Assembly: GCA_964520325.1 (NCBI GenBank) | Contig: CAZFOB010000005.1 | Span: forward strand, 20,661-84,660 | Direction: 5' to 3' | Source: an uncultured Actinomycetes bacterium | Lineage (GTDB): Bacteria; Actinomycetota; JAICYB01 | DNA: 64,000 bases | Shown here: positions 19,288 to 46,084 of the stretch, in pieces | How positions within the stretch are numbered: position 1 is the stretch's first letter | How the letters are laid out: every line of letters begins with the position of its first letter | Position numbers and translations under genes: made by a program | Notes under the pieces: model-generated | The model's input: only the letters and a program-made list of their open reading frames with translations | What the model was told of the DNA's origin: nothing | Database searches by the model: none

Positions 19288-20211
19288 GTGCACGTTATGG
19301 ACACCAAAGTGGCGCGAGCGTACACGTCTGTAGGGCTCGCCGCTGCCGGGGCCGGGGTCTGCGCGTGGGGTGTGGGGATCATCATCATCAAGCTCACGGT
19401 CTCACCGTTCCTCATCGTGTCGTTCTACCGGCACGTGTTCTCGATCCCGATCCTGCTCGTCGCATGGGCGTTCGCCCGCGACCGGACGTTGCCGTGGAGA
19501 GCAGCCGGCCTCGGCGGCGTGCTTTTCGCCGTTCATCAGGTCGCACACATCAGCGCACTGCGGTACTCCACAGCCGCGGTCGTGACGATCCTGTTCGCAC
19601 TCCAGCCGATCCTCGTCGGGATCGCCGCGGGCCGCTTCGTCGGCGAACGAGCTACACCGAGATTCTTCCTGTGGTCGAGCGTGGCCATCACTGGGTGTGC
19701 CGTCGTCGTCGTGTCGTCGTCCGGAGTCGATGAGGCCACGCCGCTCGGCACGTTGCTCGCCGTTGTGAACCTCGTCGTGTGGTCGGCGTACTACCTGGCG
19801 ACGAAGCGAGCACGTGCGACGGTCTCGACGATCTCGTGGCTGCTCGTCATGACGCTTGTGTCGGGGGCTCTCGTCGGGATGGCTGCCCTCGTCACCGGCC
19901 AGCCGTTCGCGAGCGCAAGCAACGCCGATTGGTGGCTGCTCGTGATCCTCGCCGTCGGCCCGGCCACGTGCGGACACCTGCTCGTGACGTGGGCGCAGCC
20001 GCGCATCCACGTCGCGGCTTCGTCCTCGATGAATCTCGGAGTGCCGATCGTCGCGTCGATCGGCGCCGCGATATTCCTGGACGAGCCCTTCGGTCGCTTC
20101 CAGATCTTCGGCACACTCATCGCGCTCGGCGGCGCAGCGATGGCGATGAGACATCTGCCTCCGCCGGTGAACGAAGAAGCAGCCGAACGCTTCGGCGAGG
20201 TCGCAACCTAG
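19288..20211 (+). CDS. EamA/DMT-family transporter
   Basis: About 10 TM helices in two EamA-like halves (..GVGIIIIKL.., ..AVVNLVVWSAYYLATKR..). GTG 19288 or ATG 19297 as start. Confidence 0.8.
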   Translation: MHVMDTKVARAYTSVGLAAAGAGVCAWGVGIIIIKLTVSPFLIVSFYRHVFSIPILLVAWAFARDRTLPWRAAGLGGVLFAVHQVAHISALRYSTAAVVTILFALQPILVGIAAGRFVGERATPRFFLWSSVAITGCAVVVVSSSGVDEATPLGTLLAVVNLVVWSAYYLATKRARATVSTISWLLVMTLVSGALVGMAALVTGQPFASASNADWWLLVILAVGPATCGHLLVTWAQPRIHVAASSSMNLGVPIVASIGAAIFLDEPFGRFQIFGTLIALGGAAMAMRHLPPPVNEEAAERFGEVAT

Positions 20212-20226: not shown

Positions 20227-21036
20227 TCAGAAATAGAACTGGCGCCAGGCTTCGAGCCAGGTGTCGGCGCGCGAGACGATCGTGCGCGGGTCGACGATCT
20301 CGATGCCTTGCCGGTAGCGGTACTTGGTTGTCAGGTCGGGCGTTGCGAACTCGACTTTGATCTCGCTCTGGGGGCCGGGGACATAGGGACGGATCGCGCC
20401 GACGTCCTCGAGCGCGCTTGCCGCGGCGTTCTCGATGAGCTGTCTCGCGCGTTCTGGTGGGATGTTGCGTGCGCTGAACCGTCCGAAGCTCTTCTTGACC
20501 GCGACCGTGGTGAGCTTGTCCCCGAGCAGCTCGCGACCTTCGCGGCAGGCCGCTTCGTCCCCCGTCACGAGCACGACCGGTGTGGCGAAGCTGCCGCACA
20601 ACGCTGCGTTGATGCCGGTCTCGCCGACGAGGCGGTCGTTGAACCACAGGTTGTGCCACTGGCTTCCGGAGACGGTGTGACAGAGACCACCATCCGGCGT
20701 TCCAGCCATGGCGTGCATCGCGATGAAAAGCGCCGCGTCGCAGCCCTGCTCGAGCGCTTCCGTGTACTCCGTCCACTCGTTCTGGACGACCCACTCGCAC
20801 GCCGGGTCGAGGCGCTCGGGGATGAGCGAGTTGAACGTCCAGCCCTTGCCGGCTCCGTGGCAGTCGAGGACGACGATGTCGGTGGCACCGGCGCGCTTGG
20901 CTCCGCGCACAGCGGCGTTGATCTCTTCGGTGTAGAGCACGCGTCCCTCTTCGTAGAGGCTCTCGCCGCCCGACACCTGCTCCCACTTCACGATCCCGGA
21001 CACGCCCTCCATATCCGAGAAGATCAGAACGCGCAT
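20227..21036 (-). CDS. dppA: M55-family D-aminopeptidase (DppA-like)
   Basis: MRVLIFSDMEGVSGI...VLDCHG...IAMHAMAGT.. is characteristic of peptidase M55. ATG at 21034-21036. The 194-aa upstream extension of the track ORF is rejected. Confidence 0.85.
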   Translation of the reverse strand: MRVLIFSDMEGVSGIVKWEQVSGGESLYEEGRVLYTEEINAAVRGAKRAGATDIVVLDCHGAGKGWTFNSLIPERLDPACEWVVQNEWTEYTEALEQGCDAALFIAMHAMAGTPDGGLCHTVSGSQWHNLWFNDRLVGETGINAALCGSFATPVVLVTGDEAACREGRELLGDKLTTVAVKKSFGRFSARNIPPERARQLIENAAASALEDVGAIRPYVPGPQSEIKVEFATPDLTTKYRYRQGIEIVDPRTIVSRADTWLEAWRQFYF

Positions 21037-21040
21037 GTGC

Positions 21041-22522
21041 TTACCTCGACCGCACGCGCTTCTTCGGCGCTGTGCGTTTGGCTTGGACCTTCGCCTTCGA
21101 CCTGGCTGGGGCCTTCGCTTTCGGCTTCGGTGCAGTCTTCTTGGCCACCTCGGTGGTGCGCTTCGACACCCGGCCCCCGACGTGCAGGTACTTGGGACGT
21201 CCCTGCTTGTCGAAGTCGATGAACTGAGCCTCGACCTCATCGCCGCCGAGGTTGACGAGGAAGAGTTCTTTGTCGATCGGGCGCACGCGTGCGACCTGCT
21301 TGGGTGCGAACTCGGCGAGAGGCCCGGACGCCTGCAGCTCGGCGGACAACGTACCTTCGTCGAGCTTGACCTCGATGTCGATCCCCAGACGCGAGTAGAT
21401 GCCGACGTACTTGGCGAGATCGAGCTTCGGCGCAACCTCCGGGGCTTTCGGGTTCTCGGCGACGTGCACGCCGGTGAGCTCGTCGAAGAGAAAGCGGCCG
21501 AGGTCCCGCCACAGCGCCCCACCGGTGGCTGAGTTGGTGAGCAAACAGACACCGAAGGGACGATCGGGAAGCACTTGCAAGAACGACGTCTGACCGATAG
21601 TGCCACCGCCGTGGCCAATGACGCGTTCGCCGTCCCACGATGAGAGGATCCACCCCAGACCCATCTCGCTGCCGAGCGACGACTTCGGCAGTTTCACTTG
21701 CGCCTGCTGCATAGCCTTGGCGCTCTTGGCGGACAGCACCTGCGCGCCGTCTTTCGCGCGTCCGTTGCGAAGGTGCATCCGGACGAAGGCGAGCACTTCC
21801 GCAGGCGTCGACGCCGTCATGCTCCCGGCCGGCGCATGAGACGGCGACATGATCACGACAGGAGCGACGGCCGGCTCGGTCGTCCCGGGCATGATCAGGT
21901 GTCCGACCGCGCAGCTGTGCGCGAGCATCTCTTCCATCAGGACGGTCGTCTTGTTGGCACCGATCGGCGCGAGGATCTTCTCGCGCAGCACCGTGGCGTA
22001 CGGCTGGCCTCGGAGCTTCTCGACGAGGCGCCCGAGAACCGTCCACCCCGAGTTGCAGTACGACCACATCTCGCCGGGTGGGTAGATCTGACCGATGTCC
22101 TTGAGCGATGCGACGTACTGCTCGATCCCGTCGTCGCCGCGTCCGAACGCCTCGAAGTAGTCGCCTTCGATGCCGCTGGTGTGCGTCAACAGGTTGCGCA
22201 CCGTGATCGAGTCGCGAGCCTTCTTGTCGGCGAGCTCGAAGTCCTTCAGGTACTTCTTCACCGGTGCGTCGAGATCGACGAGTCCTTCGTCGACCAGCTG
22301 CATCACGAGGGCAGCGGTGTAGACCTTGGTGTTCGAGCCGATCTGAAAGAGCGTGTTCACGGTGACGGGAACTCCGGTGTTGCGGTTGGCGACACCGGTC
22401 GCGAACTCCACGAGCTCGGATCCGCTGAGGACACCGAGCGATGCGCCAGGCACCTTGTGCTGCCGCGCGAGTGAGTCGAGTGCTGCCTGGATGTCCGAAA
22501 CCTTCGATGCGAGTGTGCTCAT
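21041..22522 (-). CDS. Serine hydrolase of the beta-lactamase/transpeptidase-like family (class C/D-aminopeptidase-like), cytoplasmic, with Lys/Ala/Pro-rich C-terminal tail
   Basis: SxxK = SNTK (..FQIGSNTKVYTA..), and ..LLTHTSG... No signal peptide. The last ~40 aa read KRTTEVAKKTAPKPKAKAPARSKAKVQAKRTAPKKRVRSR. Confidence 0.85.
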   Translation of the reverse strand: MSTLASKVSDIQAALDSLARQHKVPGASLGVLSGSELVEFATGVANRNTGVPVTVNTLFQIGSNTKVYTAALVMQLVDEGLVDLDAPVKKYLKDFELADKKARDSITVRNLLTHTSGIEGDYFEAFGRGDDGIEQYVASLKDIGQIYPPGEMWSYCNSGWTVLGRLVEKLRGQPYATVLREKILAPIGANKTTVLMEEMLAHSCAVGHLIMPGTTEPAVAPVVIMSPSHAPAGSMTASTPAEVLAFVRMHLRNGRAKDGAQVLSAKSAKAMQQAQVKLPKSSLGSEMGLGWILSSWDGERVIGHGGGTIGQTSFLQVLPDRPFGVCLLTNSATGGALWRDLGRFLFDELTGVHVAENPKAPEVAPKLDLAKYVGIYSRLGIDIEVKLDEGTLSAELQASGPLAEFAPKQVARVRPIDKELFLVNLGGDEVEAQFIDFDKQGRPKYLHVGGRVSKRTTEVAKKTAPKPKAKAPARSKAKVQAKRTAPKKRVRSR

Positions 22523-22535
22523 TCCTTACCTCCCT

Positions 22536-23717
22536 TTAGTGTTTCACCGACAGTAGTTCGCTGATAAGAGCGGCGACGAGTGCCGCGCGCTCCGGCATTT
22601 TGTTCACTATCACGTGTTCGTCCTCGGCGTGCGCGCCACCGCCGACGGCGCCGAGCCCATCGAGTGTCGGAGTGCCAACGCCCGCTGTGAAGTTACCGTC
22701 CGACGCGCCGCCGACCTCACACCCATCGAGAGCGACCAGACCCAGTCGCTCCGCGACGACGTTGGCGCGAGCGAACAACACTTCGGTGGCCGACCGCTCC
22801 ATCGGGGGCCGATTGGGGCCACCGACGATCTCGAGCTCAACGCCCGATACAACCGGACGCAATCGTTTCATCTCGTCGTCGACCCGGGCCTGCTCGTCAC
22901 GCGTCCACGCCCGGACATCGACGGTCATCTGCGCGAGAGGCGGGACGGTGTTCTTCGCCGTCCCGGCCGAGGCTGTCGTCGGAACAACGGTCGTCTGCCC
23001 TCTTGCGATCCCTTCGAGCGCCAGCACCTGGTGCGCGAGCTCGACGAGTGCGTTGGCACCGTCTTCCGGCGCAAGCCCAGAGTGCGACGCTCGTCCGCGC
23101 GCGTGTACCTCGTAGAGCGAGACCCCCTTGCGAGCGAGCTTGAGCGCTCCCGCCTCAGATGGCTCGAGCACCAAGACGGCGCCGGCTCGGCGAGCCGAGC
23201 CTTCGATGAGCTCGCGCGAGCTCGGCGAGCCGAGCTCCTCGTCACTCGTCACCAAGAGCTCAAGCCCATCGAGATTTCCGGCCGGTGTCGCGACACGGGC
23301 GAGCGCGAAGAGGCCCTGGACGAGTCCTGCCTTCATGTCGAAGACGCCCGGCCCCCGCGCGACACCGTCGCGAACTTCGAATGGCTTTCGATCGATCGTG
23401 CCGAGCGGCCACACCGTGTCGAGGTGGGCGAGCAGGAGCACGGCAACATCGCCCGTCCCACGCCAGCGCAGGTGCGGACGACCGTCGGTCTCGATGATCT
23501 CCGGTGGCGCGCCGAGCCACTCGGTGCCGAGCTTGGCAACGAGATCGGCGCACCCGCGCACAGCGTCGAGATCGCTCGACGGCGACTCCGCGTTCACGAT
23601 CTCACCCAGCACGTCGACCATCTCGGGAAGAAGATCTTTGAAGGCCTCTACCCGGGGGAGACCCCCGGACCCCCCAGGCCGGGGGAGACCCCCGGACCCC
23701 CCGGACATTCGCGTCAC
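22536..23717 (-). CDS. M20-family metallo-amidohydrolase (carboxypeptidase G2/desuccinylase-like)
   Basis: ..VNAESPSSD.., LLAHLDTVWP, GPGVFDMKAG, ..TSDEELGS.., ..GGGAHAEDEHV.. The GTG 23717 start overlaps the upstream stop (GTGA); ATG 23708 is an alternative. Confidence 0.85.
   Translation of the reverse strand: MTRMSGGSGGLPRPGGSGGLPRVEAFKDLLPEMVDVLGEIVNAESPSSDLDAVRGCADLVAKLGTEWLGAPPEIIETDGRPHLRWRGTGDVAVLLLAHLDTVWPLGTIDRKPFEVRDGVARGPGVFDMKAGLVQGLFALARVATPAGNLDGLELLVTSDEELGSPSSRELIEGSARRAGAVLVLEPSEAGALKLARKGVSLYEVHARGRASHSGLAPEDGANALVELAHQVLALEGIARGQTTVVPTTASAGTAKNTVPPLAQMTVDVRAWTRDEQARVDDEMKRLRPVVSGVELEIVGGPNRPPMERSATEVLFARANVVAERLGLVALDGCEVGGASDGNFTAGVGTPTLDGLGAVGGGAHAEDEHVIVNKMPERAALVAALISELLSVKH
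23652..23705. repeat. Tandem 27-bp duplication, each unit containing a CCGGGGG-AGA-CCCCCGG hairpin
   Basis: Read directly: CCGGGGGAGACCCCCGGACCCCCCAGG / CCGGGGGAGACCCCCGGACCCCCCGGA. It encodes GGLPRPGGSGGLPR at the N-terminus of the M20 protein. Confidence 0.9.
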
Positions 23718-24817
23718 GGTCTGATCAACTCGACAGACCTTGTGAAGTCCTCGAGCACTTCAGGGATCGGCAGAACTCCGATACCGGGCCCGCTGGGCAC
23801 AGCGAGGTAGCCGTCGTCGAGAACGAACGGCTCGGTCACGTCTTGAGCGAAGTACCTGTCCGATGCCGAGGTGTCGCCGGGCAGGGTGAAGTTGGGGAGC
23901 GCCGCGAGCGCGACGTTCGCTGCTCTACCGAGCCCGGTCTCGAGCATGCCCCCGCACCACACGGGGACGCCGTTGGCGGCACACACGTCGTGCGCTCGTC
24001 GCGCCTCGAGATACCCGCCCATACGACCGGGCTTGATGTTCACGATCGAGCACGCGCCGATGGCGATGGCATCGGCGGCTGCGCGCGCGTCGACGATCGA
24101 TTCGTCCAGGCAGATCGGAGTGCGCACGATCTTCGCAAGCTCCGCGTGGTCTCGCACATTGTCTTCAGGCAACGGCTGCTCGATGAGGAGCAGGTCGAAG
24201 TCGTCGAGCTTGGCCAGGTGGCGCGCGTCGCCCAGTGCGTACGCGCTGTTCGCATCGACCTGCAGCACGATGTCGCCGAACCGCTCGCGCACCGCGCGCA
24301 CCGGCTCCACATCCCATCCCGGCTCGATCTTGAGCTTGATACGGCGATAACCCTCCGAAAGATAGCCGTCGACGTGGTCGATGAGCTCGGCGATCTCGTC
24401 GAAGATGCCGACGGAGACACCGCACTCAACACGCTCGCGCACCGCGCCGAGGTGCGACGACAACGACTGATCACGAGCGCGAAGCTCGGCGTCGAGCACG
24501 GCCGTTTCGATCGCCGCCTTCGCCATCCGGTGACCCAGAACCGACGACGTGACAGGACCAACATCGGACGCGCTCAAGCCGTCGGCTGCGAAGAGTGGCG
24601 GCAGGATGAAACGCCGAAGGACGTCGACCGCGCCGTCGACGTACTCGGACGAATATGACGGCTCCGAGAGCGCAACGCACTCCGCCCATCCATCGGCGTC
24701 CGGCGTGATGGCGCGCACGAGCAGGATGTCGCGTTCGGTCTGTGTACCGAAGGAGGTCCGGAACGGGACGCGTAGCGGCATGTCGATCCGTCTGAGCTCG
24801 ACGGCGTCGAGTTTCAT
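23714..24817 (-). CDS. Enolase-superfamily N-acyl/N-succinylamino acid racemase / o-succinylbenzoate synthase family
   Basis: MKLDAVELRRIDMPL.., KxK (RIKLKI), VDAN, IEQP, LDES and NIKPGRMGG are the OSBS/NSAR catalytic motifs. ATG at 24815-24817 is preceded by AAGGAG and forms ATGA with the PucR stop. Confidence 0.85.
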   Translation of the reverse strand: MKLDAVELRRIDMPLRVPFRTSFGTQTERDILLVRAITPDADGWAECVALSEPSYSSEYVDGAVDVLRRFILPPLFAADGLSASDVGPVTSSVLGHRMAKAAIETAVLDAELRARDQSLSSHLGAVRERVECGVSVGIFDEIAELIDHVDGYLSEGYRRIKLKIEPGWDVEPVRAVRERFGDIVLQVDANSAYALGDARHLAKLDDFDLLLIEQPLPEDNVRDHAELAKIVRTPICLDESIVDARAAADAIAIGACSIVNIKPGRMGGYLEARRAHDVCAANGVPVWCGGMLETGLGRAANVALAALPNFTLPGDTSASDRYFAQDVTEPFVLDDGYLAVPSGPGIGVLPIPEVLEDFTRSVELIRP

Positions 24818-26526
24818 ATGGGGCTCCTTTCGGTCAGGCCGTTCAGGCCCAGTCGAAGCTCCAGCTCGACCAGCAAACGTGACTGGGGATCGGCGAGGTC
24901 GACTCCGGACAGCTCGACGAGACGGCGCAGCCGGTAACGCAGCGTGTTCGGATGCACACTTGCCAACGCCGCCGCACGCGGCACGTCCCCGAAGGCATCG
25001 AGGTAACAACGGAGCGTGTGGATGTAGCTCGTCGAGTGCTCGGCGTCGTGACGGTGAAGGGTCGCCAAGCCTTGCGAACGCAGGTGCGGACGATCCGCAG
25101 CGAAGTCCCGAAGCTCGAGCAGCGCGATCTGTCCACGTGAGGATGCGAAATCGGCGACAGCGGGGCTCGCTGGGTCCTGGGCGAGGGCGCGCAGCACCTG
25201 GTCGGCTTCGCGCCGTGAGGACGCAACGTCGCGCAGGTGCGAGACGACTCCACCGATCCCGGCACGCAAGCTGACGCCGAGGGTTTCGTACGCGCGTGAC
25301 ACGATGTCGTGCCCAAGCTCGAGAAGTCTCGCGGGACGCTCCGGGTCGGGCCCCGGAAGCAGGACGTAGATCGTGCGTCCGAGTTGGGCGACAGCACTTC
25401 GTTGACGGAATGTCTCACCGTAGAGTCCGACCAGGTCGAGCACTCGCTCGCGCGCCAGCGCGCTCTCAACGTCGTCGGGCGACTGGGGCTCGAACGCAAG
25501 CACGGCGAATGTGCCGTCGGCCGGCACTCCAAGCCCGTATGCAACCTCGTCGAGGCCGCCGCTGCCACCCTCGACGGCTCGTCCTTCGAGGATCACGCGC
25601 AGCAGATCGCCGCGGCTGCTCCGCTCGAGGTCCTCGACCGCGCGGTGCTTGATCAGATGCAACGCCGCGATCCTGGCGGCGTCCCGGAGCGCATCCTCCG
25701 CGAGGGCGGTGAGCGGAACCTCGCCCTCGGAAACCCAGATCGAGCCGAGGATCACGTCTCGGGCCCGGATCGCGATCGCCAGGCGGGGATAGAGATCGAG
25801 CTCCGGCGGAGCGACGTAGCGGACGAGCTCGCCTTCCCACAGGCGGGCGAACACACCCGCGTCTTCGAGACGCTGCAGCCATTCGTCGGGGACGCGCCGT
25901 CCGAGGATCGTTTGCCGGCGCGGCTCGTCCACACCCTCGCTTTGCGATGAGTAGGCGAGCACGCGCGACTGCCGGTCCTCGATCGTGACCGCACCACCGA
26001 CCATCGCAGCAACAGCATTGGCGAGCGCGAAGAGGTCACCAAGCGGGAAGGTCGTCGCATCGGCCTCATCGGGCAGCGCGACGCTCGCGAGAGCCGTGCG
26101 CACCAGTGAGTGGGCCTGACTCCACGTCATCTCCGTCGGAACGGCCAGAAGCGCTACCCCCGCCCGTTCGGCAGCTTGCCGCAGGGCATCCGGTTCGTAG
26201 CGCTCGGTATCACCCCAGAGCTTGAGCGCGACCGCGGCTGCACCGGCCGCTCCGGCGCGCCGCAACAGCTCGACAGCATCCTGCGATGCACCTCCCCGCG
26301 GCATCACACCGACGCCGAGAACGATCGCACCGGCCTCGAGCTCCGGTGGAGTCGCCGGGTCGTGGATGATCGCCTCGCCGACTCCGATCTCCAATCCCTT
26401 CGGCGCACACACGAGATCCATGACCGCAAGGTTCTTCAGTACTGCGCCGAGAAGCGGCGAACCCGGCGCCTGCGCGTACGGGCGAACCTCGGGACGTGGT
26501 CGGCCGCGTCTAGTACGCGACGTCAT
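24814..26526 (-). CDS. PucR/CdaR-family transcriptional regulator
   Basis: C-terminal ..ASVHPNTLRYRLRRLVELSGVDL.. (PucR HTH) with a GGDEF-like/PucR middle region. ATG 26526 is chosen and overlaps the GNAT 3' end by 17 nt. Confidence 0.8.
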   Translation of the reverse strand: MTSRTRRGRPRPEVRPYAQAPGSPLLGAVLKNLAVMDLVCAPKGLEIGVGEAIIHDPATPPELEAGAIVLGVGVMPRGGASQDAVELLRRAGAAGAAAVALKLWGDTERYEPDALRQAAERAGVALLAVPTEMTWSQAHSLVRTALASVALPDEADATTFPLGDLFALANAVAAMVGGAVTIEDRQSRVLAYSSQSEGVDEPRRQTILGRRVPDEWLQRLEDAGVFARLWEGELVRYVAPPELDLYPRLAIAIRARDVILGSIWVSEGEVPLTALAEDALRDAARIAALHLIKHRAVEDLERSSRGDLLRVILEGRAVEGGSGGLDEVAYGLGVPADGTFAVLAFEPQSPDDVESALARERVLDLVGLYGETFRQRSAVAQLGRTIYVLLPGPDPERPARLLELGHDIVSRAYETLGVSLRAGIGGVVSHLRDVASSRREADQVLRALAQDPASPAVADFASSRGQIALLELRDFAADRPHLRSQGLATLHRHDAEHSTSYIHTLRCYLDAFGDVPRAAALASVHPNTLRYRLRRLVELSGVDLADPQSRLLVELELRLGLNGLTERSPI

Positions 26527-27391
26527 CTCGCCCCAGCACGTACCAACCCGATCGCACGAAGCCGACGATCCTGTATCCACCCTCGAGGGCCGGGAGAAGT
26601 GTCTCTCTCAAGCCGACTCGCCACTGTCTGCACAGCTCCGGATCGGCAGCGCGCATGCCGACGATGTCTTCCGGGACGAAGCACACGAGAGTTGCCGCAC
26701 GCGATGAGCTCGCGTGCGGACCTCCACGCTCGTCGGCCCGCAACACGGTGTCGGCGCCCTGCGCCACGAGAGCTTCGACGTCCGGGTCGGACAACCTCGC
26801 ATCGGCGGCGCTCACGATGCGAGCCGAGCGAAGGTCCCACGTCACCAACAAGCGATCCGACTCGTCGCCCCCGTTGATGCCGTCGGTCATGGAGCCATAG
26901 AAGTTGACGAGGTAGGACGCGGCGTCGACGCCCAGCTTCTGGAAGTTGAAATGCGCGTTGCGCCGGACGAGCGGATCGAACGTCCACGTGATGCGGTCGA
27001 TGCCGTGGCGCAGCGCCCACGCACGCTGATGCTGCTTGAGCGCATACCCGACGCTTTTCGTTTGGCGGCCGGGGAAGACACCGAGGATGTGCGAGTGCAG
27101 ATACACGCCGTTGCCGTTTTCTCCGAGGAATCCGACCACGGCTCCGGTCAGCTCGTCGCCAACGAAGGCGCCCGCGGCGTAGCTCCCCGAATGGGTGAGT
27201 GCACGGATGAGCTCGGCCGGCATCTGCGAGTTGGCGGGACCGGTCCCCCACACCGATTCGAACACCTCGGTCGCCCGGCGGAAATGGTCGGGCTGGTCGA
27301 GGAGCCGCACATCGACGCCGGCACCGGCGGCCGCCCGGCGGGCCTGCTCGCCGGCGCGCTCGACCGTGGTTTCGAACTCCGTGCGCATCAC
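26510..27391 (-). CDS. GNAT-family acyltransferase (candidate amino-acid N-succinyl/acetyltransferase)
   Basis: 293 aa. ..HSHILGVFPGRQTKSVGYALKQHQRAWALRHG..FDPLVRRNAHFNFQKLG.. has an acyl-CoA-binding-like core. It is the first gene of the racemase operon. Confidence 0.65.
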   Translation of the reverse strand: MMRTEFETTVERAGEQARRAAAGAGVDVRLLDQPDHFRRATEVFESVWGTGPANSQMPAELIRALTHSGSYAAGAFVGDELTGAVVGFLGENGNGVYLHSHILGVFPGRQTKSVGYALKQHQRAWALRHGIDRITWTFDPLVRRNAHFNFQKLGVDAASYLVNFYGSMTDGINGGDESDRLLVTWDLRSARIVSAADARLSDPDVEALVAQGADTVLRADERGGPHASSSRAATLVCFVPEDIVGMRAADPELCRQWRVGLRETLLPALEGGYRIVGFVRSGWYVLGRDDVAY

Positions 27392-27504
27392 CCGACCCTC
27401 CCATCTGGGGCAGTTCCTTCATATGTAGGATGCGACAAAAAGCTAGCAGACGCTTCGTAAGTTGCGCCTAGCCGCTCTGGCCAGAGGTACGCTACCGATC
27501 AGTT

Positions 27505-27750
27505 GTGGGTATCCCGCGGGTCTGTTGGCCGCAGCTCACGGCGGGGTTTCCCGACGGAGTGAAGCTTGCGGCCAAGACGGGAACGCTGCCCGGCATCCGC
27601 AACGAGGCCGGCGTCGTCGCGTATCCGGACGGCAAGCGTTACGCGGTCGCGGTGTTCACGCGGTCACGCGTCTTCCGCGATCGACAGCCCGAGGTCGATG
27701 CGGCGATCGGGAGCGCGGCGTGCGCTGCGGTCGAGGCGTTGCGAGCGTAG
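27505..27750 (+). pseudogene. 3' fragment of a class A beta-lactamase/PBP-like serine hydrolase (KTG box to C-terminus only)
   Basis: ..LTAGFPDGVKLAAKTGTLPGIRNEAGVVAYPDGKRYAVAVFT.. matches the class A region around the KTG motif. No SxxK- or SDN-containing upstream part exists; an in-frame TAG lies at 27469. Confidence 0.6.
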
Positions 27751-27756
27751 GGACCG

Positions 27757-28962
27757 TCAGTCCCAGATGACGGCGAGGCGCGGCGGTTTGCGGAACTCGT
27801 GTCCGCGCGGTGCGCTCGGCACATCGGGGTCGAGCCGGAGTCCGGGCAGACGGTCGAGCAGCTGGTCGATCACCGCGCCCGTCTCGAGGCGCGCGAGGTG
27901 CAAGCCGAGACAGAGATGGCGGCCCCACCCGAACGTCAGGTGATCGGAAGCGTTGTCTCGATCGATGAGATAGAGATCGGGATCGCGGAAGTGGTCCGGG
28001 TCGCGGTTAGCGCCTCCGATCATGCATTCGACGATCTCGCCTTCGCCGATGTCGGCACCGTCAAGCCCGACATCGCGGGTCGCAAAGCGGGTCAGTGTCT
28101 GCACGGCCGGCTCCCACCGCAGGGACTCTTCGATGGCCCTCGGAAGGTGCGCACGATCGGCACGCACCGCCTCGAGGGCGTCGGCGTGCCGCAAGAGCGC
28201 CCACGTTGCGTTGAGGATCATCGATTCCATCGTCTCGATCCCCCCGAAGAGGATCAGCAAGACGTTGGCGCCGAACGCCTCATCGTCCAGGCCGCTGGAT
28301 CGGCTCTGCTCGGCGATCGCGTCGAGGCGGCTTGGCGTCACGTCGAGTGCGCCCGCAAGTTGTTGACCGATCTGTTCGCGGACGAGCGCCGCCGTTGCGC
28401 GTCCCCTCTCAGCGATCGCCGGTGCGTTCTCAACGTTGGCGAGCGCGGCTGCGAAGTCGTCGTACCAGGAACGCACGAGTCCCAGATCGTCGGTTGCCAG
28501 CCCCAGTACATCGACGACCGTTCCCACCGAGACGATCGCAGCGAGGTTCCGTATGTCGGCGCGTCGCTGCGGCGCGCCAGGCTCGTCCGCGATGGCATCG
28601 ACGAGACGCGCGACGCGCTCGCGCACCGCTGGCTCGATGCCGTCGGCAAGCGCACGGCGGCGGAAGGTTGGGGCGAAGGGTGCGCGGTGATGGCGTTGCG
28701 CTTCGCCGTCCGTCGACAGCATCTGGGGGCCGAAGGTTGCCTTGATCGGCGAAGAGGCAGAGTCCGTCGTGAACGATGCGGTATCCATAAGTACGCGGAC
28801 GCAGAGCTCGCGAGGCGTAACGAGCCATCGCCGCAATGCATCGGACCACGTCACGGGTTCACGTAACCGCAGCTGCGCAAGCAAGGGATACGGATCTGCG
28901 TCGAGGGTCTCGAGTGTCACGGTCGCCCCAAGAGGGAACTCTGTAGCGCGATCCGAGATCAT
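27757..28962 (-). CDS. Cytochrome P450
   Basis: FGWGRHLCLG heme-thiolate loop, EESLRW (ExxR) and an I-helix-like LILFGGIETM. Confidence 0.9.
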   Translation of the reverse strand: MISDRATEFPLGATVTLETLDADPYPLLAQLRLREPVTWSDALRRWLVTPRELCVRVLMDTASFTTDSASSPIKATFGPQMLSTDGEAQRHHRAPFAPTFRRRALADGIEPAVRERVARLVDAIADEPGAPQRRADIRNLAAIVSVGTVVDVLGLATDDLGLVRSWYDDFAAALANVENAPAIAERGRATAALVREQIGQQLAGALDVTPSRLDAIAEQSRSSGLDDEAFGANVLLILFGGIETMESMILNATWALLRHADALEAVRADRAHLPRAIEESLRWEPAVQTLTRFATRDVGLDGADIGEGEIVECMIGGANRDPDHFRDPDLYLIDRDNASDHLTFGWGRHLCLGLHLARLETGAVIDQLLDRLPGLRLDPDVPSAPRGHEFRKPPRLAVIWD

Positions 28963-31823: not shown

Positions 31824-32558
31824 ATGGCGATGATCGAGGCCCGAGGCCTCCGCAAGACCTACCGGACGTTGCAGGCCGAGGTCCGCGCCCTGGACGGCGT
31901 CGACATATCTGTTGCCGAAGGCGAGTTCGTCGCCATCATGGGTCCGTCGGGCTCGGGGAAGTCGACGCTTCTGCACATGCTCGGCGCCCTGGACACCCCC
32001 GACGACGGGGAGGTGGCGCTCGCCGGACGTAGCCTCGCGGGACTCTCGGCGTCCGAGCTCGCGCGCGTGCGCAGGCGCGATGTGGGCTTCGTCTTCCAGC
32101 TCTTCAACCTCGTGCCGGTCCTTTCGGTGGCAGAGAACATCGGGCTCCCGCTCTCGCTCGACGGTGTGCGCGACAAGGAGCGAGACGCTCGTGTCGCCGA
32201 GCTCGTCGTCCAGCTCGGTCTCGGGCCTCGCGCCGACCTGCTGCCGTCGCAGATCTCGGGTGGCGAGCAGCAGAGAGCGGCCATCGCTCGAGCGTTGGTA
32301 AACCGTCCGAAGATCATCTTGGGGGACGAACCGACGGGCAATCTCGACCGCGCGAACTCACGGGACGTCATGGAGCGGCTCGCGTCCCTCTCGGATGCGG
32401 GACAGACACTTGCCATCGTCACCCACGACCCATCGGTCGCGTCCTTCGCGAGACGTGTCGTCTTCATGAGGGACGGCCGTCTCGTCGACGAAGCCTTACC
32501 GGAGAGTCGGGGATCGACGAGCGAGATCCTTGATCGTTTGTCCGAATTGGAAACCTGA
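31824..32558 (+). CDS. ABC transporter ATP-binding protein (MacB/LolD-type)
   Basis: [24 protein letters not shown] and [14 protein letters not shown] 31824 is chosen; the upstream track extension is rejected. Confidence 0.9.
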
Positions 32559-32698
32559 TGAACAGGATCGGCGTGATGGGCGGGACGTTCGATCCGATCC
32601 ATACCGGACACCTGGTGGCAGCCGACGAAGCGCTGCACGCATTCGAGCTCGTCGTGCAGCCTATGGGCATGCTCAAGCGCAAACAGGACGAGGCGTAG
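32558..32698 (+). pseudogene. nadD: 46-codon remnant of nicotinate-nucleotide adenylyltransferase (nadD) 5' end
   Basis: Below the ORF-track size cutoff. My translation is [46 protein letters not shown]. The (H/T)xGH nucleotidyltransferase motif [11 protein letters not shown] is intact and the rest is missing. The ATG overlaps the ABC ATPase stop (TGATG). Confidence 0.6.
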
Positions 32699-32700
32699 CC

Positions 32701-34689
32701 GTGGCCAATCGAGCCCGCGCCAAGCGATCGCTCACGTTCGAAGACCTGTACCGGCTGAAAGACGCTTCCGACCCGCAGCTGCGTCCCGACGGCGGATGCG
32801 TCGCCTTCGTCGTCGGCACTGTCGACAAGGACGCCGACACCACGAACCGGTCCATCTATGTCGTCGACAGCACAGGCGGCGAGCCCAAGACGCTGACCCG
32901 CGGGAAGAGCGACACCGCACCGCGGTGGTCGCCCGACGGGCGCTTCCTCGCATTCCAACGTAGCGAGGAAGGCAAACGGCCGCAGATCTGGCTCCTGCCC
33001 ACCGGTGGAGGCGAGGCACGCAAGCTCACCGATCTGCGCAACGGCGTCACCGTCATGCAATGGTCGCCCGATTCCGCGAGGCTCGCCGTGACCGCGATCG
33101 TCGATATCGGACTCTCCGATGAGGCCGACCCCGAACCCGACGAAGATCCCGACGCGGAGCACAAGCGCCGGGCGAGCGCTCCCGTCGTCGTGCGCACAAA
33201 CGCATTCAAGGTCGACGGAACCGGACTGCTCGGCACACGTCGCGTGCACCTGTCCGTCGTCGACATCAACACGGGTGAGGCTCGCACGCTCACGTCGGGA
33301 GACTTGAGCGTCGGGAGTCTCGCATGGTCGCCCGACGGCAAGCGCATCGCGTACTCGGCCTCCATCGTTGCCGACCGCGACGTGTGGGGACGGTCGCACC
33401 TCTTCGCTGTCGACGCATCCGGCGGCGAGCCGAAGGACGTCGCGACTTGGGACGGATCGGCCGGAGCTCCGACCTTCTCCCCGGACGGCGAGCGGATCCT
33501 GTTCGTCGGATCGCCCGGACCTGCCGCCGGCCACTCGCGCCTATTCATCGTCGCGTCAGACGGTGGGGCACCCGAGCCGTTGCTCACCGACTTCGATCGC
33601 AACGTCATGGTCGGGGGCCCCGGCTATCCCGGAGCGCCCCCGAGGTTCTGCGGCGCCGACACCGTCCTGTTCTGCGCGAGAGACCGCGGGTGCACGCACA
33701 TCTACGCAGCGGAGTCGCGCGAGGCCACGAAGCTCGTCGGCGGCGGCGATCGTGTTGCGGCTTCTTTCTCGATCGCTGGAACGCGAATGGCGTACATGGT
33801 CTCGGCCCCCGACTGTCCGAGTGACGTTTACATCGCCGGCACCGACGGAAGCGACGAGCAACGCCTCACCGACCTCAATCGAGAGCTCATCGACGAAGTG
33901 CGCTTACACGTGGCGCAGCCGCGCACCTTCGAAGCGCCGGACGGAACGCCGATCCACGGATGGCTCGTCCGCGGTGACGGCGACGGCCCGCAACCGCTGT
34001 TGCTCGACGTGCACGGCGGCCCACACAACGCGTGGAACCCGGCGTTCCTTCCCTCGGTGCACATGTACATCGAGGTGCTGGCATCGAAAGGCTGGAGCGT
34101 GCTGCTCGTCAACCCCCGCGGCAGCGACGGGTACGGCGAAGCGTTCTACCGTGGCGTCGTCAACGGGTGGGGTGAGAACGACCAGGACGACTTCCTATGC
34201 GCCATCGATGACCTCGTGGCCGAGGGCCTCGTCGATCCGGATCGCCTTGCGGTATATGGGTACAGCTACGGCGGTTACATGACCAACTGGCTGACGAGCC
34301 GCACCGACCGCTTCGCCGCAGCCGTGTCCGGCGGGTGCGTCACCAACATCGCGAGCATGTACGGCACGTCCGATTTCGGCCCCCTGTTCGCCGTAAGTGA
34401 ACACGGCTTCGAGCTGCACGAGGGCCGGGCGCGCTTCGCCGAGCTGTCGCCCTTGAGTTACGTCGAGCACGTCACGGCGCCGACGCTGATCCTGCACGGC
34501 GAGTCCGACGACCGGTGTCCCATCGGGCAGGCCGAGGAATGGTTCTCGTCATTGCGGCGCCTGGGGTGCACGACCGAGCTCGTGCGCTACCCGGGCGCGA
34601 GCCACCTGTTCATCTTGAACGGACGACCCTCGCACCGCGTCGACTACTCCCGCCGCATCGTCGACTGGCTCACGCAACACGTCGGGTAG
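32701..34689 (+). CDS. S9-family serine peptidase (acylaminoacyl-peptidase/dipeptidyl-peptidase-like)
   Basis: Beta-propeller N-terminal half (..PRWSPDGRFLAF.., ..WSPDSARLAV.., ..AWSPDGKRIAY..), then GYSYGGYM (GxSxGG), and a ..LILHGESDDRCP.. and ..HLF.. catalytic region. GTG 32701. Confidence 0.85.
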   Translation: MANRARAKRSLTFEDLYRLKDASDPQLRPDGGCVAFVVGTVDKDADTTNRSIYVVDSTGGEPKTLTRGKSDTAPRWSPDGRFLAFQRSEEGKRPQIWLLPTGGGEARKLTDLRNGVTVMQWSPDSARLAVTAIVDIGLSDEADPEPDEDPDAEHKRRASAPVVVRTNAFKVDGTGLLGTRRVHLSVVDINTGEARTLTSGDLSVGSLAWSPDGKRIAYSASIVADRDVWGRSHLFAVDASGGEPKDVATWDGSAGAPTFSPDGERILFVGSPGPAAGHSRLFIVASDGGAPEPLLTDFDRNVMVGGPGYPGAPPRFCGADTVLFCARDRGCTHIYAAESREATKLVGGGDRVAASFSIAGTRMAYMVSAPDCPSDVYIAGTDGSDEQRLTDLNRELIDEVRLHVAQPRTFEAPDGTPIHGWLVRGDGDGPQPLLLDVHGGPHNAWNPAFLPSVHMYIEVLASKGWSVLLVNPRGSDGYGEAFYRGVVNGWGENDQDDFLCAIDDLVAEGLVDPDRLAVYGYSYGGYMTNWLTSRTDRFAAAVSGGCVTNIASMYGTSDFGPLFAVSEHGFELHEGRARFAELSPLSYVEHVTAPTLILHGESDDRCPIGQAEEWFSSLRRLGCTTELVRYPGASHLFILNGRPSHRVDYSRRIVDWLTQHVG

Positions 34690-35419: not shown

Positions 35420-35917
35420 CTACGGGATCATCGGTGCGCGCGCGAAGGCGTCGAGCAAGAGGACCGTTCGCGTGTCGCGCACCTCGGGGTTGGCGTGAAG
35501 GCGCTCGAGCACGACGTCGCGCAGCGTGTCGGCGTTGGACGTTCGCACGAGCACAACGAAGTCGAAGTCTCCCGCTCCAAGACCGACGAACTCGACCTCG
35601 GGCACCGAGGCCAGGAAGTCACGGATCTCGCGCCAGCGCGATTGGTCGACCGTCACGAAGATCATCGCCGTGACATCGAGGCCGACGGCTCGCGGGTCGA
35701 CGCGCGTCTCGAAGCCCTCGATGATCCGGTCGGTCGTGAGGCGGTCGAGCCGGGCGTAGGCGTTGGCGCGGGAGATGTTCGCCCGCTTCGCAAGCTCGGC
35801 AACCGAGATCCGCGCGTCGTCACGAAGCACCCGGAGCAGAGCCCGATCCACGTCATCGACGGTTCGTCGTGCGAGAGCCGGCTCCGATGCCACTTCACGA
35901 GACGGATCGCTCTTCAT
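35420..35917 (-). CDS. Lrp/AsnC-family transcriptional regulator
   Basis: ..DRALLRVLRDDARISVAELAKRANISRANAYARLDRL.. HTH plus a RAM domain (..VTAMIFVTV..FDFVVLVR..). ATG 35917 is chosen; ATG 35956 is possible. Confidence 0.85.
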   Translation of the reverse strand: MKSDPSREVASEPALARRTVDDVDRALLRVLRDDARISVAELAKRANISRANAYARLDRLTTDRIIEGFETRVDPRAVGLDVTAMIFVTVDQSRWREIRDFLASVPEVEFVGLGAGDFDFVVLVRTSNADTLRDVVLERLHANPEVRDTRTVLLLDAFARAPMIP

Positions 35918-35995
35918 CAGACCATTCTTGCACACATCGTCTTGATTCTCGCGCATGGGCTAGACAAGCAGCTCGATCGGAGCCACATTGGTGGC

Positions 35996-37606
35996 ATGGC
36001 AAAAGCGGTTTTCGCCGACGCGGTCGTCGTCGATGGCCGTCACCTCACCCTCGACGACGTGGCCGCCGTCGCGCGCGCCGCCCGGCCGGTCAAGCTGTCC
36101 GAAGACTCAGGCGTCCGCGACCCGATCGAGCGCAGCCGCGCGCTCTGTCAGAAGCTCATCGAGAGCGGTACTCCTCTTTATGGGATCACGACGGGGTTCG
36201 GAGACTCCGTCCACCACCAGATCGCGCCAGACAAAGCCCGGATCCTCCAGCAGAACCTCATCAGCAACCTCGGCAACGGCACGGGAAACGCCACGCCCAC
36301 CGACGCCGCACGCGCCGTCGTGGTCGTGCGGGCCAACGCGCTCGCCCGCGGACACTCCGGTGTGCGCGCCGAGCTCATCGAAGCACTGCTCGGCCTCCTG
36401 AACGCGGGGATCACTCCGGTCATCCCAGAAGAAGGCTCGGTCGGCGCCAGCGGCGACCTCGTGCCTCTGTCCTACGTGGCTGCGGCGATCATGGGCACGA
36501 GAACCGTGCGCTACCGCGGCGAGATCCGCGAGGCTGCCGATGCGCTGACGGACGAGGGCCTCGAGCCGATCGTGCTCGAGCCGAAGGAAGGTCTCGCGCT
36601 CGTCAACGGAACGGCGTTCATGACCGGACTCGCGGCGCTCGCCACCATCGATGCGCGACGTCTGGCTCTGCTGACCGACATATGCACTGCCATGACGACC
36701 GAAGTCCTGTGCGGGATCACGGGCCCGTTCCAAGCCTTCCTTCATGAGGAAGCCAAACCCCACCCCGGACAGATCCGCTCGGCGGCGAACGTCCGTTCCT
36801 TGCTCGATGGCAGCGGTCTCGCGACGCCCTACGATCAGGTGGTCGAAGCAGCCGGCACCGCGAACGGTCACTCGCGCGAGCTGCCGGTCAAGATCCAGGA
36901 TCAGTATTCCGTGCGCTGCGCCCCGCAATTCACCGGTGTGCTGTGGGACACGCTCACATGGGTCGAGCGATGGCTCGAGATCGAGATCAACTCGACCAAC
37001 GACAATCCTCTCTTCGATACGGCCGCCGATGTCGTGGTGAGCGGCGGCAACTTCGCCGGCGGCCATGTCGCGCTTGCGATGGACACGCTCAAGACTGCCG
37101 TCGCCAGCCTCGGCGACTTGATGGACCGCCAGCTCGAGCTCGTCGTCGACGAGAAGTTCAACCACGGTCTCACGCCGAACCTGGTCCCCAGGTTGCCCGA
37201 AGGCCATCCCGACGAGGGGCTGAATCACGGTTTCAAAGGGATGCAGCTCGCGTGCTCGTCGCTCGCGGCAGAAGCGCTGAGCCGGTGCATGCCGCTCTCG
37301 GTCTTCTCCCGCTCGACCGAATGTCACAACCAGGACAAAGTCTCGATGGGCGCCACGGCCGCGCGGCAAGCCCGCGATGTCGTTGCGCTCGTCGAGAAAG
37401 TGGCGGCGATCCACCTTCTGGCCTTGTGCCAAGCTGCCGACCTGCGCGGAGCGGACAAGCTTGGTGCAACGCGCGTGGTCTACGACCGCGTGCGCGCGAG
37501 GGTGCCTGCTCTGAACGAGGCGCGGCCGATGGCCGACGACATCGTCACGGTGCTCGGCATGATCCACGACGGCACCATCACGGAGGACCTCCCGCTCGAG
37601 CAGTAA
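35996..37606 (+). CDS. MIO-dependent aromatic amino acid ammonia-lyase family protein (HAL/PAL/TAL family; specificity unclear)
   Basis: ..YGITTGFG.., GSVGASGDLVPLSY (the Ala-Ser-Gly MIO triad), ..NDNPL.. ATG 35996 is chosen; the 167-aa upstream extension (antisense to lrp) is rejected. Confidence 0.85.
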   Translation: MAKAVFADAVVVDGRHLTLDDVAAVARAARPVKLSEDSGVRDPIERSRALCQKLIESGTPLYGITTGFGDSVHHQIAPDKARILQQNLISNLGNGTGNATPTDAARAVVVVRANALARGHSGVRAELIEALLGLLNAGITPVIPEEGSVGASGDLVPLSYVAAAIMGTRTVRYRGEIREAADALTDEGLEPIVLEPKEGLALVNGTAFMTGLAALATIDARRLALLTDICTAMTTEVLCGITGPFQAFLHEEAKPHPGQIRSAANVRSLLDGSGLATPYDQVVEAAGTANGHSRELPVKIQDQYSVRCAPQFTGVLWDTLTWVERWLEIEINSTNDNPLFDTAADVVVSGGNFAGGHVALAMDTLKTAVASLGDLMDRQLELVVDEKFNHGLTPNLVPRLPEGHPDEGLNHGFKGMQLACSSLAAEALSRCMPLSVFSRSTECHNQDKVSMGATAARQARDVVALVEKVAAIHLLALCQAADLRGADKLGATRVVYDRVRARVPALNEARPMADDIVTVLGMIHDGTITEDLPLEQ

Positions 37607-44006: not shown

Positions 44007-44074
44007 CTTAGCACGGATGAGGCCACATGCCGTCCGGCCGCCTGTGGGCCGGAGCGGCGTTACGCTCGTCTGTC

Positions 44075-45997
44075 GTGATCACCATCAGCAATGTCCGGAA
44101 GTCCTTCGGCGCACGCGACCTGCTCAAGGACGCGTCCCTGCGCCTGGGTGTGCGCGACCGTGTTGCGCTGGTCGGCCCGAACGGCTCGGGCAAGACCACC
44201 CTGCTCGAGATGATCGTGGGCTCCCAGGCCGTCGACGAGGGCAGGGTCGAGCGCGCAGGCGACGTCGTGGTCGGGTATCTCCCTCAGGAGACCGACGCGC
44301 TTCGCGGTCGAAGCATCCTCACCGAGGTCATCTCGGCGGGGCCGGCCATGTCGCATGCCGGACACCGGCTTCACATCCTCGAGCAGGAGCTCGAGGAAGC
44401 CACCGATCCGGACGAACGCGAGGCGTTGCTGGCTGAGTTCACCCACCTCCAAGGGCGGTTCGACGAGCTCGGCGGGTACTCGCTCGAGGCGCAGGCACGA
44501 AAGATCCTCAGCGGACTCTCCTTCACCGACGAAGACCTCGCACGTCAAACCGATTCACTGTCGGGAGGCTGGCTGATGCGCGTCGCTCTGGCCAAGCTGC
44601 TGCTTGCGGCCCCCGACGCGTTGCTCCTCGACGAGCCGACGAACCATCTCGACCTCGAATCGATGAAGTGGCTCGAGCGGTTCCTCGTCAGCTACGACGG
44701 AACGATCCTGCTCGTCTCTCACGATCGCGACTTCATGAACGTGCTCGCCACACGCGTGGTCGAGATCCGGGACGCGAGTCTGTTGTCATACACAGGCGAC
44801 TACGAAGCGTTCGTCGAGCAGCGAGCGCAAGAGATGATGCAAGCCGAGGCGGCTGCCAAGAACCAGGCGAAACGGATCGCGCATACCGAGAAGTTCATCG
44901 AACGGTTCCGCTACAAGAGCTCGAAGGCACGACAGGTGCAGAGCCGGATCAAGGCGCTCGACAAGGTCGATCGGCTGCAGGCGCCGGTGAAGAGCCGGAA
45001 GGCGATGAAGTTCGGGTTCCCTCCCCCGCCGCGGTCGGGCCAGGTCGTCATCGAGCTCGACAAGGTCGGTTTTTTCTACGAACCCGACAAGCCCGTCTAC
45101 GGATCACTGGACATCTCCATCGAGAGAGGACGCAAGGTCGCGCTCGTCGGTCCAAACGGTGCCGGCAAGACGACGCTGCTCAAGCTCTTGGCCGGAGCCC
45201 TCTCGCCGACGTCCGGCGAACGCCGATTGGGCCACAACGTCTCGCTCGGATACTTCGCGCAGCACCAGATCGAAGCGCTCGATCCTGCCAACCGCGTGTA
45301 CGAAGAGGTCGAACGCTCGATGCCACCCGGCGTGACCATGCATCCGCGCGATCTGCTGGGCCGCTTCCTGTTCTCCGGTGACGACGTCAACAAGCCGGTG
45401 TCGGTGCTCTCAGGCGGCGAGCGCACCCGCTTGGCGCTGGCGAAACTCCTGATCCAGCCGGTGAACTTCCTCTGCCTAGACGAGCCCACCAACCACCTCG
45501 ACATCTCCAGCCGCGACGTCCTCGAGGATGCGCTGGTCGAGTACACGGGCTCACTCGTCCTCGTGACGCACGACCGTCACCTCATCCGAAGCGTCGCCGA
45601 CCACATCATCGAGGTGGAGTCGGGCGTGGTGCGCTGGTTCGTCGGCGACTACGAGCACTACCTCTACCGCAAGGCACAGGAACAAGAGGCGGCCCAGGCT
45701 CCGGCCCCCATGGTCGCCGCAAAGGCCGCCGCAAAGACCGCTGCGAAAGCAGGATCCCGGGTGGACAAGGCAGAGCTGCGACGCCGGCGCGCGGCCGTGC
45801 GAAAGGTCGAGGCGGAGATCACGGAGGTGAACGCCGAGCGCGACCGCCTTGCGGCGCTCCTCGCCGACACCAAGACGTATGCCTCAGGCGAGATGTCTCG
45901 CAACGCCTTGCGCGCCCACGATGCGGCTGAGCAGAATCTCGCCAAGCTCGAATCCGACTGGGAGAGATTGACCGAGAGTCTCGACTCAACCGCGTAG
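44075..45997 (+). CDS. ABC-F family ATPase (Uup/YheS/EttA-like), two NBDs plus C-terminal coiled coil
   Basis: GPNGSGKTT and GPNGAGKTT Walker A motifs, LSGGW and LSGGERTR signatures, no TM segments, and an Ala/Lys/Arg-rich coiled-coil tail. GTG 44075. Confidence 0.9.
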   Translation: MITISNVRKSFGARDLLKDASLRLGVRDRVALVGPNGSGKTTLLEMIVGSQAVDEGRVERAGDVVVGYLPQETDALRGRSILTEVISAGPAMSHAGHRLHILEQELEEATDPDEREALLAEFTHLQGRFDELGGYSLEAQARKILSGLSFTDEDLARQTDSLSGGWLMRVALAKLLLAAPDALLLDEPTNHLDLESMKWLERFLVSYDGTILLVSHDRDFMNVLATRVVEIRDASLLSYTGDYEAFVEQRAQEMMQAEAAAKNQAKRIAHTEKFIERFRYKSSKARQVQSRIKALDKVDRLQAPVKSRKAMKFGFPPPPRSGQVVIELDKVGFFYEPDKPVYGSLDISIERGRKVALVGPNGAGKTTLLKLLAGALSPTSGERRLGHNVSLGYFAQHQIEALDPANRVYEEVERSMPPGVTMHPRDLLGRFLFSGDDVNKPVSVLSGGERTRLALAKLLIQPVNFLCLDEPTNHLDISSRDVLEDALVEYTGSLVLVTHDRHLIRSVADHIIEVESGVVRWFVGDYEHYLYRKAQEQEAAQAPAPMVAAKAAAKTAAKAGSRVDKAELRRRRAAVRKVEAEITEVNAERDRLAALLADTKTYASGEMSRNALRAHDAAEQNLAKLESDWERLTESLDSTA

Positions 45998-46084
45998 TCG
46001 TGGGGTTGAAGTCTTGAGGTGAACTCAACGAGGATCGCTCACGACGCTGGTGCTCGTCTTGGCCAGCGCGGGAGAGGAGACGGC

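Follow-up and report, generated by a model that had tools for sequence, protein, structure and literature searches.

A minus-strand run of six open reading frames (ORFs), spanning positions 27391-20227 of a 64,000-nucleotide stretch of contig CAZFOB010000005.1 (hereafter the window) from an uncultured actinobacterium, encodes, in gene order, a GNAT acyltransferase, a PucR-family regulator, an enolase of the N-succinylamino acid racemase/o-succinylbenzoate synthase (NSAR/OSBS) subfamily, an M20 metallo-amidohydrolase, an S12 serine hydrolase and an M55 DppA-like peptidase. We propose, with moderate confidence, that these genes form a fused, PucR-controlled operon in which D-amino acids, set free from short peptides by the S12 and M55 enzymes, are converted to the L-form by the GNAT, NSAR and M20 enzymes. 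The proposal builds on the gene content and tight coupling of the run, the intact catalytic residues of its products, the orthology of the enolase to a characterized NSAR, the missing men pathway, and the recurrent linkage of the shunt to peptidases, peptide importers and PucR regulators in other Actinomycetota. The window has a G+C content of 65-69%, and its source assembly comprises 3.5 Mb in 42 contigs and is 95% complete.

A pathway in which an NSAR/OSBS enzyme works with a succinyltransferase of the GNAT family and an L-desuccinylase of the M20 family to convert D- to L-amino acids was first found in Geobacillus kaustophilus, according to two reports by the Glasner group (bioRxiv 10.1101/2022.03.03.481873; PMC12006748). 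The operon described here would be a fusion of such a module with a second one. In the first module (GNAT, NSAR and M20), GNAT would N-acylate a free D-amino acid, probably with succinyl-CoA, NSAR would racemize the resulting N-succinyl amino acid, and the M20 enzyme would hydrolyze only the L-form, so that flux would be pulled irreversibly toward L-amino acids. The second module (S12 and M55) would most likely cleave short peptides that contain D-residues and pass the freed D-amino acids to the first, and a substrate or intermediate would presumably act through PucR to induce the operon. We infer the substrates, the acyl donor, the stereospecificities, the hand-over between the modules and the effector of the regulator. 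Because the direction of the shunt depends only on the stereospecificities of GNAT and the M20 enzyme, the same genes could also run from L to D and supply D-amino acids. This is very unlikely indeed: the characterized Geobacillus system runs from D to L, the co-encoded D-aminopeptidase-type enzymes would release D-residues rather than consume them, and no biosynthetic consumer lies nearby.

Searches with Pfam and NCBIfam profiles bore out the six genes, strand, coordinates and family assignments given in an earlier note on this DNA. The junctions it had listed were likewise reproduced when recomputed from the DNA: in gene order, they measure -17 (an overlap), -4 (ATGA), -4 (GTGA), +13 and +4 nt, and the 13-nt gap between the M20 and S12 genes contains AGGGAGG, a strong ribosome-binding site. 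Its motifs, KxK, D, E, D and K in the enolase and SNTK in the serine hydrolase, are also present. The operon is bounded by a P450 gene on the same strand, 365 nt upstream of GNAT, and by a convergent EamA/DMT transporter gene downstream. The shunt genes are physically, and probably also transcriptionally, coupled to those of two D-aminopeptidase-type enzymes.

Among solved structures, the best relative of the enolase is the Amycolatopsis NSAR (1SJA; E 4e-167, 559 bits over residues 1-360), followed by the Deinococcus NSAR (333 bits), a Thermus enzyme (302 bits), the NSAR/OSBS enzymes of Enterococcus (281 bits) and Listeria (277 bits), and 3QLD (252 bits), which we take to be an OSBS-only Alicyclobacillus enzyme. 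In the HMMER alignment to 1SJA, the catalytic and metal-binding residues K161, K163, D189, E214, D239 and K263 (AmyNSAR numbering) are all kept. The enolase also retains the second-shell arginine R266, within an IKPGR motif, which marks the NSAR/OSBS subfamily and favors NSAR activity (PMC12006748). Amycolatopsis NSARs have themselves been assigned as probable NSARs from operon and genome context (PMC12006748; bioRxiv 10.1101/2022.03.03.481873). The protein scores 308.9 bits against the “menC” model TIGR01928 (cut-off 200.65) and 75 bits against the actinobacterial MenC model NF002782 (cut-off 288). Judged by these alignment and profile scores, it sides with NSAR and not with actinobacterial MenC, and NSAR is its likely function.

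The enolase could alternatively be the cell's OSBS for menaquinone synthesis, since it passes the TIGR01928 model, is the sole OSBS-like gene found in the assembly by whole-genome searches with the two MenC models, and belongs to a subfamily of promiscuous enzymes (PMC12006748). We rejected this role, to which we give almost no credence, after whole-genome searches for MenC, MenB, MenD, MenA, MenE and MqnA and inspection of the one MenB-like locus. The 95%-complete assembly yielded no match to MenD (TIGR00173, PF16582), MenA (TIGR00751) or MqnA and nothing above cut-off for MenE, and its single MenB-like crotonase, just below cut-off (340.4 against 342.7 bits), sits among unrelated genes with no men neighbors. 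The lack of men genes remarked on earlier for the surroundings of the operon thus extends to the whole assembly, where an OSBS would have no detectable pathway to serve. The genome, in which no futalosine genes were detectable either, contains 29 crotonase-like and 35 acyl-CoA-ligase-like matches as well as four tandem LipJ-like lipase/adenylate-cyclase genes (C6:52041-57447; L010 42-5448); this gene content hints that the organism lives by degrading lipids and has some other quinone route.

To place the operon in a wider context, we fetched 80 loci, nearly all from Actinomycetota, whose enolases are 57-71% identical to that of the window, and counted as partners the homologs found by tblastn with the window proteins no more than 7 kb from the enolase. 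GNAT and M20 are habitual partners: the former is present at 69 of the 80 loci, mostly immediately upstream on the same strand, and the latter at 46, with orthologs of 51-59% identity adjoining GNAT-NSAR. PucR is found at 35 loci, S12 at 24 and S9 at 14. A common one-strand layout consists of an Opp/Dpp-type ABC importer, an S9 peptidase (a PD40 propeller with a prolyl-oligopeptidase fold), S12, M20, GNAT, NSAR and PucR, and occurs in Dactylosporangium, Nocardioides, Lentzea, Streptomyces, Microbacterium and Arthrobacter. Rhodococcus qingshengii has the order M55, MFS, M20, GNAT, NSAR, PucR. M55 is also near the enolase in a Nocardioides metagenome-assembled genome (L072), and in a Mycobacteriales one (L037) it lies approximately 7.2 kb away on the opposite strand, outside the 7-kb count. 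At seven of the 80 loci, an amidohydrolase of the PRK09061 family (729 bits, above cut-off; for example L016 2931-4406, minus strand) is encoded near the NSAR cluster. We take this family to be the D-glutamate deacylase of CDD, which would constitute another link to D-amino acids.

The GNAT assignment is weak by sequence, with 21.2 bits to PF00583. An AlphaFold model (pLDDT 94) confirms the GNAT fold, with residues 26-188 matching N-alpha-acetyltransferases (NatA/Ard1/RimI) at Z 15.9. The protein is divided into a GNAT domain (residues ~25-190) and a separate C-terminal domain (190-293), for which no structural match appeared in searches where the GNAT domain dominated. Its family counts more than 4000 members under the sole name “predicted GNAT”. 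A sequence search of solved structures found no relative, protein atlas matches were confined to “GNAT” clusters from Actinomycetota, and the best 150 matches of a profile search were all close relatives, with no Firmicutes homolog among them. Longer proteins bearing a GNAT homolog (P0122, P0148 and others) displayed no fusion to NSAR or M20; one of them, P0148 (485 aa), joins the homolog to a C-terminal GatB_Yqey domain. GNAT is a probable D-amino-acid N-succinyl (acyl) transferase. The M20 enzyme, whose best solved relative is carboxypeptidase G2 (CPG2), keeps the aligned His, Asp, Glu-Glu, Glu and His ligand positions and is a probable N-succinyl-L-amino-acid desuccinylase. Its predicted N-terminus bears a short direct peptide repeat outside the CPG2 alignment. 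Homology begins near residue 25, where that alignment starts, and translation may in fact begin at the ATG of codon 4.

A different use of the same enzymes is suggested by the PDB names of the Amycolatopsis enzyme, originally reported to be an N-acylamino acid racemase, and by the PRK09061-family amidohydrolases of some NSAR neighborhoods. The enolase would then racemize imported N-acyl-D-amino acids, M20 would be an L-aminoacylase, and GNAT would serve otherwise, for example in detoxification or recycling. We regard such N-acyl-amino-acid utilization as improbable, since no other gene accompanies the enolase as constantly as GNAT, which better fits the making of the racemase substrate, and since GNAT is a succinyltransferase in the published pathway (bioRxiv 10.1101/2022.03.03.481873).

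The two peptidases would supply the proposed D-to-L shunt. In the AlphaFold model of the S12 protein (pLDDT 89), a penicillin-binding protein (PBP)-like catalytic domain is followed by a C-terminal lipocalin-like barrel. Residues 4-457 superpose on IS11 with 439 residues aligned (Z 48.5, root-mean-square deviation 2.6), and both domains also match SurE (Z 42.7), Ulm16 (41.5) and the DL-peptidase Lip3 (39.5); the match to Pab87 (Z 41.4) covers the catalytic domain only. Identity to the solved relatives is 22-32% in structural alignments, with IS11 at 32%, and the SNTK, YCN and HGG motifs align with the SxxK, YxN and H/K-x-G elements of IS11 and Pab87. Pab87 favors D-Ala-p-nitroanilide over its L-counterpart by a factor of approximately 65 and removes D-Ala from muropeptides, and its authors consider most S12 peptidases D-specific (PMC2651629). 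Lip3 is reported to cut D-L bonds of lipopeptides, and SurE and Ulm16 likewise recognize D-residues. By analogy with these enzymes, the S12 protein is a probable D-stereoselective peptidase. Inspection of its N-terminus, made without a predictor, revealed no obvious signal peptide, and the protein is probably cytoplasmic. The chain ends in a basic tail rich in Lys, Ala and Pro (residues 461-493), for which disorder is predicted (pLDDT ~40) and which resembles the histone-like tails of some actinobacterial proteins.

Instead of being a peptidase, the S12 protein could act on a non-peptide or macrocyclic substrate, as an esterase or as a cyclase or thioesterase of the PBP type. Such a role would fit its best solved match, known only as an esterase, and its resemblance to SurE and Ulm16, which are cyclases. 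It seems distinctly improbable for a protein whose partners are M55 and M20 here and S9 peptidases and Opp importers elsewhere, and no non-ribosomal peptide synthetase context exists within the window. The M55 protein matches Bacillus subtilis DppA (1HI9) over its full length at 121 bits and keeps the DxE, His, His and Glu positions, which we take to be the metal ligands. It scores below the DppA equivalog model NF058634 (150 bits, cut-off 430), and is a probable D-aminopeptidase.

We also compared the operon with nine genomes from uncultured members of its family. In two of these (G004 and G007), GNAT-PucR-NSAR occupies one strand, with a divergent S9-S12-S12 run on the opposite strand. The EamA gene of G004, 63% identical to that of the window, is convergent with the enolase, and an S12-M55 pair of G007 is situated 3.4 kb past the GNAT-PucR-NSAR / S9-S12-S12 block. 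The S12-M55 pair most similar to that of the operon (70% and 83% identity) is found in G003, which has no NSAR gene. M55 orthologs with 60-83% identity are present in seven of the nine genomes, and in G002 and G006 they stand beside ABC ATPases, away from NSAR. The M20 ortholog occurs among the sister genomes only in G006, where it is also beside NSAR. In the window, M20-S12-M55 sits between NSAR and EamA, which are neighbors in G004 and would once have adjoined each other here. Since GNAT-PucR-NSAR and S12-M55 are separate modules in the sister genera, the operon appears to be a recent fusion. In another, unpublished genome, G005, NSAR is directly followed by a 70% identical S12, and S9, S12-like and M55 genes are neighbors on another short contig; no conclusion rests on this genome.

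The strongest rival explanation holds that the two modules are independent and merely adjacent, with GNAT-NSAR-M20 converting D-amino acids that are free or already N-acylated, and with S12-M55 acting as a general cytoplasmic peptide or cell-wall-turnover pair whose products have no specific path into the shunt. It draws its main support from G003, where the pair exists without an NSAR gene, and further support from the distance between M55 and NSAR in G002 and G006, from the uniqueness of the fused arrangement to the window genome among those searched, and from the recent shuffling to which a gene relic and a displaced S9 gene (see below) attest. However, with junctions of 13 and 4 nt, S12 and M55 share one transcript frame with M20, an S12, S9 or M55 gene has repeatedly been brought beside the shunt in independent lineages, and the pair in G007 is only 3.4 kb from the NSAR neighborhood. 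We consider independence of the modules unlikely and continue to favor a functional fusion of the peptidases with the shunt.

Table 1 Features of the operon and its surroundings in the window.
Feature	Position	Strand	Length	Profile match or remark
GNAT acyltransferase	26510..27391	-	293 aa	PF00583, 21.2 bits
PucR-family transcription regulator	24814..26526	-	570 aa	inside the operon
Probable N-succinylamino acid racemase (NSAR/OSBS subfamily enolase)	23714..24817	-	367 aa	MR_MLE_C, TIGR01928
M20 metallo-amidohydrolase, CPG2-like	22536..23717	-		PF01546 and PF07687
Direct peptide repeat at M20 N-terminus	23620-23717	-		SGGLPRP / SGGLPRV
S12 (PBP-like, beta-lactamase-fold) serine hydrolase	21041..22522	-		PF00144, 218 bits
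Basic tail of S12 protein	21041-21140	-		residues 461-493
M55 DppA-like peptidase	20227..21036	-		PF04951, 249.5 bits
Candidate promoter or operator element	27422..27438	-	17 nt	30 nt upstream of GNAT start
Class-A-like (Beta-lactamase2) serine hydrolase relic	27472..27747	+	92 codons	C-terminal part, KTG motif; gap upstream of GNAT
EamA/DMT transporter	19288..20211	+		PF00892
S9 peptidase ortholog	32470..34689	+		5 kb from the operon
Aromatic amino-acid ammonia-lyase	35495-37606	+		HAL/PAL family
ABC-F type ATPase	44027-45997			
Second S12 paralog	46019-47485	+		directly after the ABC-F type ATPase gene

Further traces of remodeling flank the operon. The S9 ortholog, situated behind P450 and MacB-type permease genes, is 55-59% identical to the S9 that diverges from GNAT in G004 and G007, and 44% identical over 660 aa to the in-cluster S9 of locus L024. 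The ammonia-lyase gene comes after it, where the sister genera have two S12 genes. The serine hydrolase relic takes up most of the gap upstream of GNAT, and its match to PF13354 (44.5 bits) is confined to profile positions 172-214. Rhodococcus (L016), Spirillospora (L054) and Streptomyces (L033) each have a match to it, at 55-59% identity, next to an NSAR cluster, and the relative in L016 is a full-length gene of 297 aa. The relic appears to be a trace of rearrangement and adds to the evidence of remodeling. Two plus-strand ORFs in the 365-nt gap (27462-27770 and 27566-27943), in a different frame from the relic, were rejected as Arg-rich artefacts without homologs. A quick maximum-likelihood tree of 39 S12 sequences displays three clades, of which one is S9-adjacent (21 rows, support 99), one is a “second S12” clade and one is M55-paired (support 86). 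The second S12 paralog of the window groups with the “second S12” genes that come after S9-S12 in the sister genera.

The regulator contains HTH_30 (PF13556, 70.7 bits) and GGDEF_2 (PF17853, 52.2 bits) domains. Its PucR N-terminal domain scores 25 bits, under the cut-off of 33.5, and its best NCBIfam match is AdeR-like (112 bits, below cut-off). The gene is intra-operonic both here and in the sister genera. The 17-nt element (consensus TTGTCGCATSCTACRTA) is also found ahead of GNAT in G004 and, carrying one additional mismatch, in G007, and is a candidate promoter or PucR operator. A regulon search returned a single exact copy in its own genome, from which no regulon can be derived. A sigma-70 promoter scan, uninformative for a high-GC host, gave 0 promoter-like sites, and terminator-like sites were no more numerous than in shuffles.

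Several observations weigh against the proposed reading of the operon. The six-gene set and order is absent from the 80 loci and the nine sister genomes in tblastn searches with all six proteins, which led us to reject the six genes as a conserved unit, and M55 is a rare partner of the enolase (three of the 80 loci). The S12-M55 pair of G003, lacking NSAR, suggests that the pair can work alone, and the presence of GNAT-PucR-NSAR without an M20 ortholog in G004 and G007 indicates that the trio is not obligatory. The operon S12 falls in the M55-paired clade and not with the widely conserved S9-adjacent paralog, its closest solved relative IS11 is characterized only as a carboxylesterase (PMC9972953), and the operon itself includes no importer gene. 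The succinyltransferase role of GNAT, taken from the published pathway, is only probable. Characterized NSARs prefer hydrophobic N-succinyl amino acids, a poor fit to the D-Ala or D-Glu of peptidoglycan. This preference points to non-canonical D-amino acids or non-ribosomal peptides rather than to peptidoglycan, and stem peptides as the source of D-residues are a matter of speculation. The reading put forward in the earlier note, that the peptidases feed the shunt, stands in part: the NSAR shunt context, the missing men genes and the linkage to peptidases support it, the latter through the recurrence of S12, S9 and Opp-type importers, while the six genes are no conserved unit and M55 is a rare partner.

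The three-enzyme D-to-L shunt is reported to date to work by Sakai in 2006. Its coupling to D-aminopeptidase-type enzymes in the window, and to S9, S12, Opp-type importers and PucR elsewhere, points to D-residue-containing peptides as the natural input. A more tentative possibility is that the NSAR shunt of Actinomycetota is the end-station of a dedicated, PucR-controlled system for the import and dismantling of D-peptides, with D-tolerant S9, S12 and M55 enzymes, of which the window would hold a transporter-less fusion. The imported peptides could be non-ribosomal peptides, lipopeptides or cell-wall fragments. If true, this would give a physiological role to the Amycolatopsis-type “N-acylamino acid racemase”, since the 1990s only a promiscuous OSBS relative, and would define a widespread microbial route for the use of environmental D-peptides. 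The question of the natural input is testable in cultivable relatives such as Rhodococcus qingshengii, Nocardioides taihuensis or Lentzea albida. It is relevant to D-amino-acid turnover in soil and water, and the genes offer candidate D-stereoselective peptidases and a deracemization cassette for biocatalysis.

In the literature searched, we found no link of NSAR operons with D-aminopeptidases or peptidase clusters. The GNAT-NSAR-M20 core is already known; the associated peptidases and regulator are new, and the operon extends a known pathway rather than establishing a new one. The window M55 protein shows full-length homology to B. subtilis DppA with metal-ligand positions kept, but it is encoded outside a dpp transporter operon and falls below the equivalog cut-off. 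The S12 protein shares its PBP-like catalytic domain and SxxK, YxN and HxG motifs with the “CubicO” peptidase Pab87 of Pyrococcus abyssi (2QMI), and, as matched in the structural model, its predicted C-terminal lipocalin-like barrel with IS11, SurE, Ulm16 and Lip3. Pab87, SurE and Lip3 act on D-configured residues, whereas IS11 is known only as an esterase; relative to these enzymes, the window protein carries an extra basic tail that is predicted to be disordered. The enolase aligns over nearly its full length with the NSAR/OSBS of Amycolatopsis sp. T-1-60 (1SJA), with catalytic, metal-binding and specificity residues all kept, and in a genome with no detectable men pathway NSAR would be its only role. 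As in the Geobacillus pathway, the three enzyme families are adjacent and co-directional and the enolase is an R266-bearing member of the NSAR/OSBS subfamily. In contrast to that pathway, the window has PucR between GNAT and NSAR, S12 and M55 coupled downstream, and an actinobacterial host.

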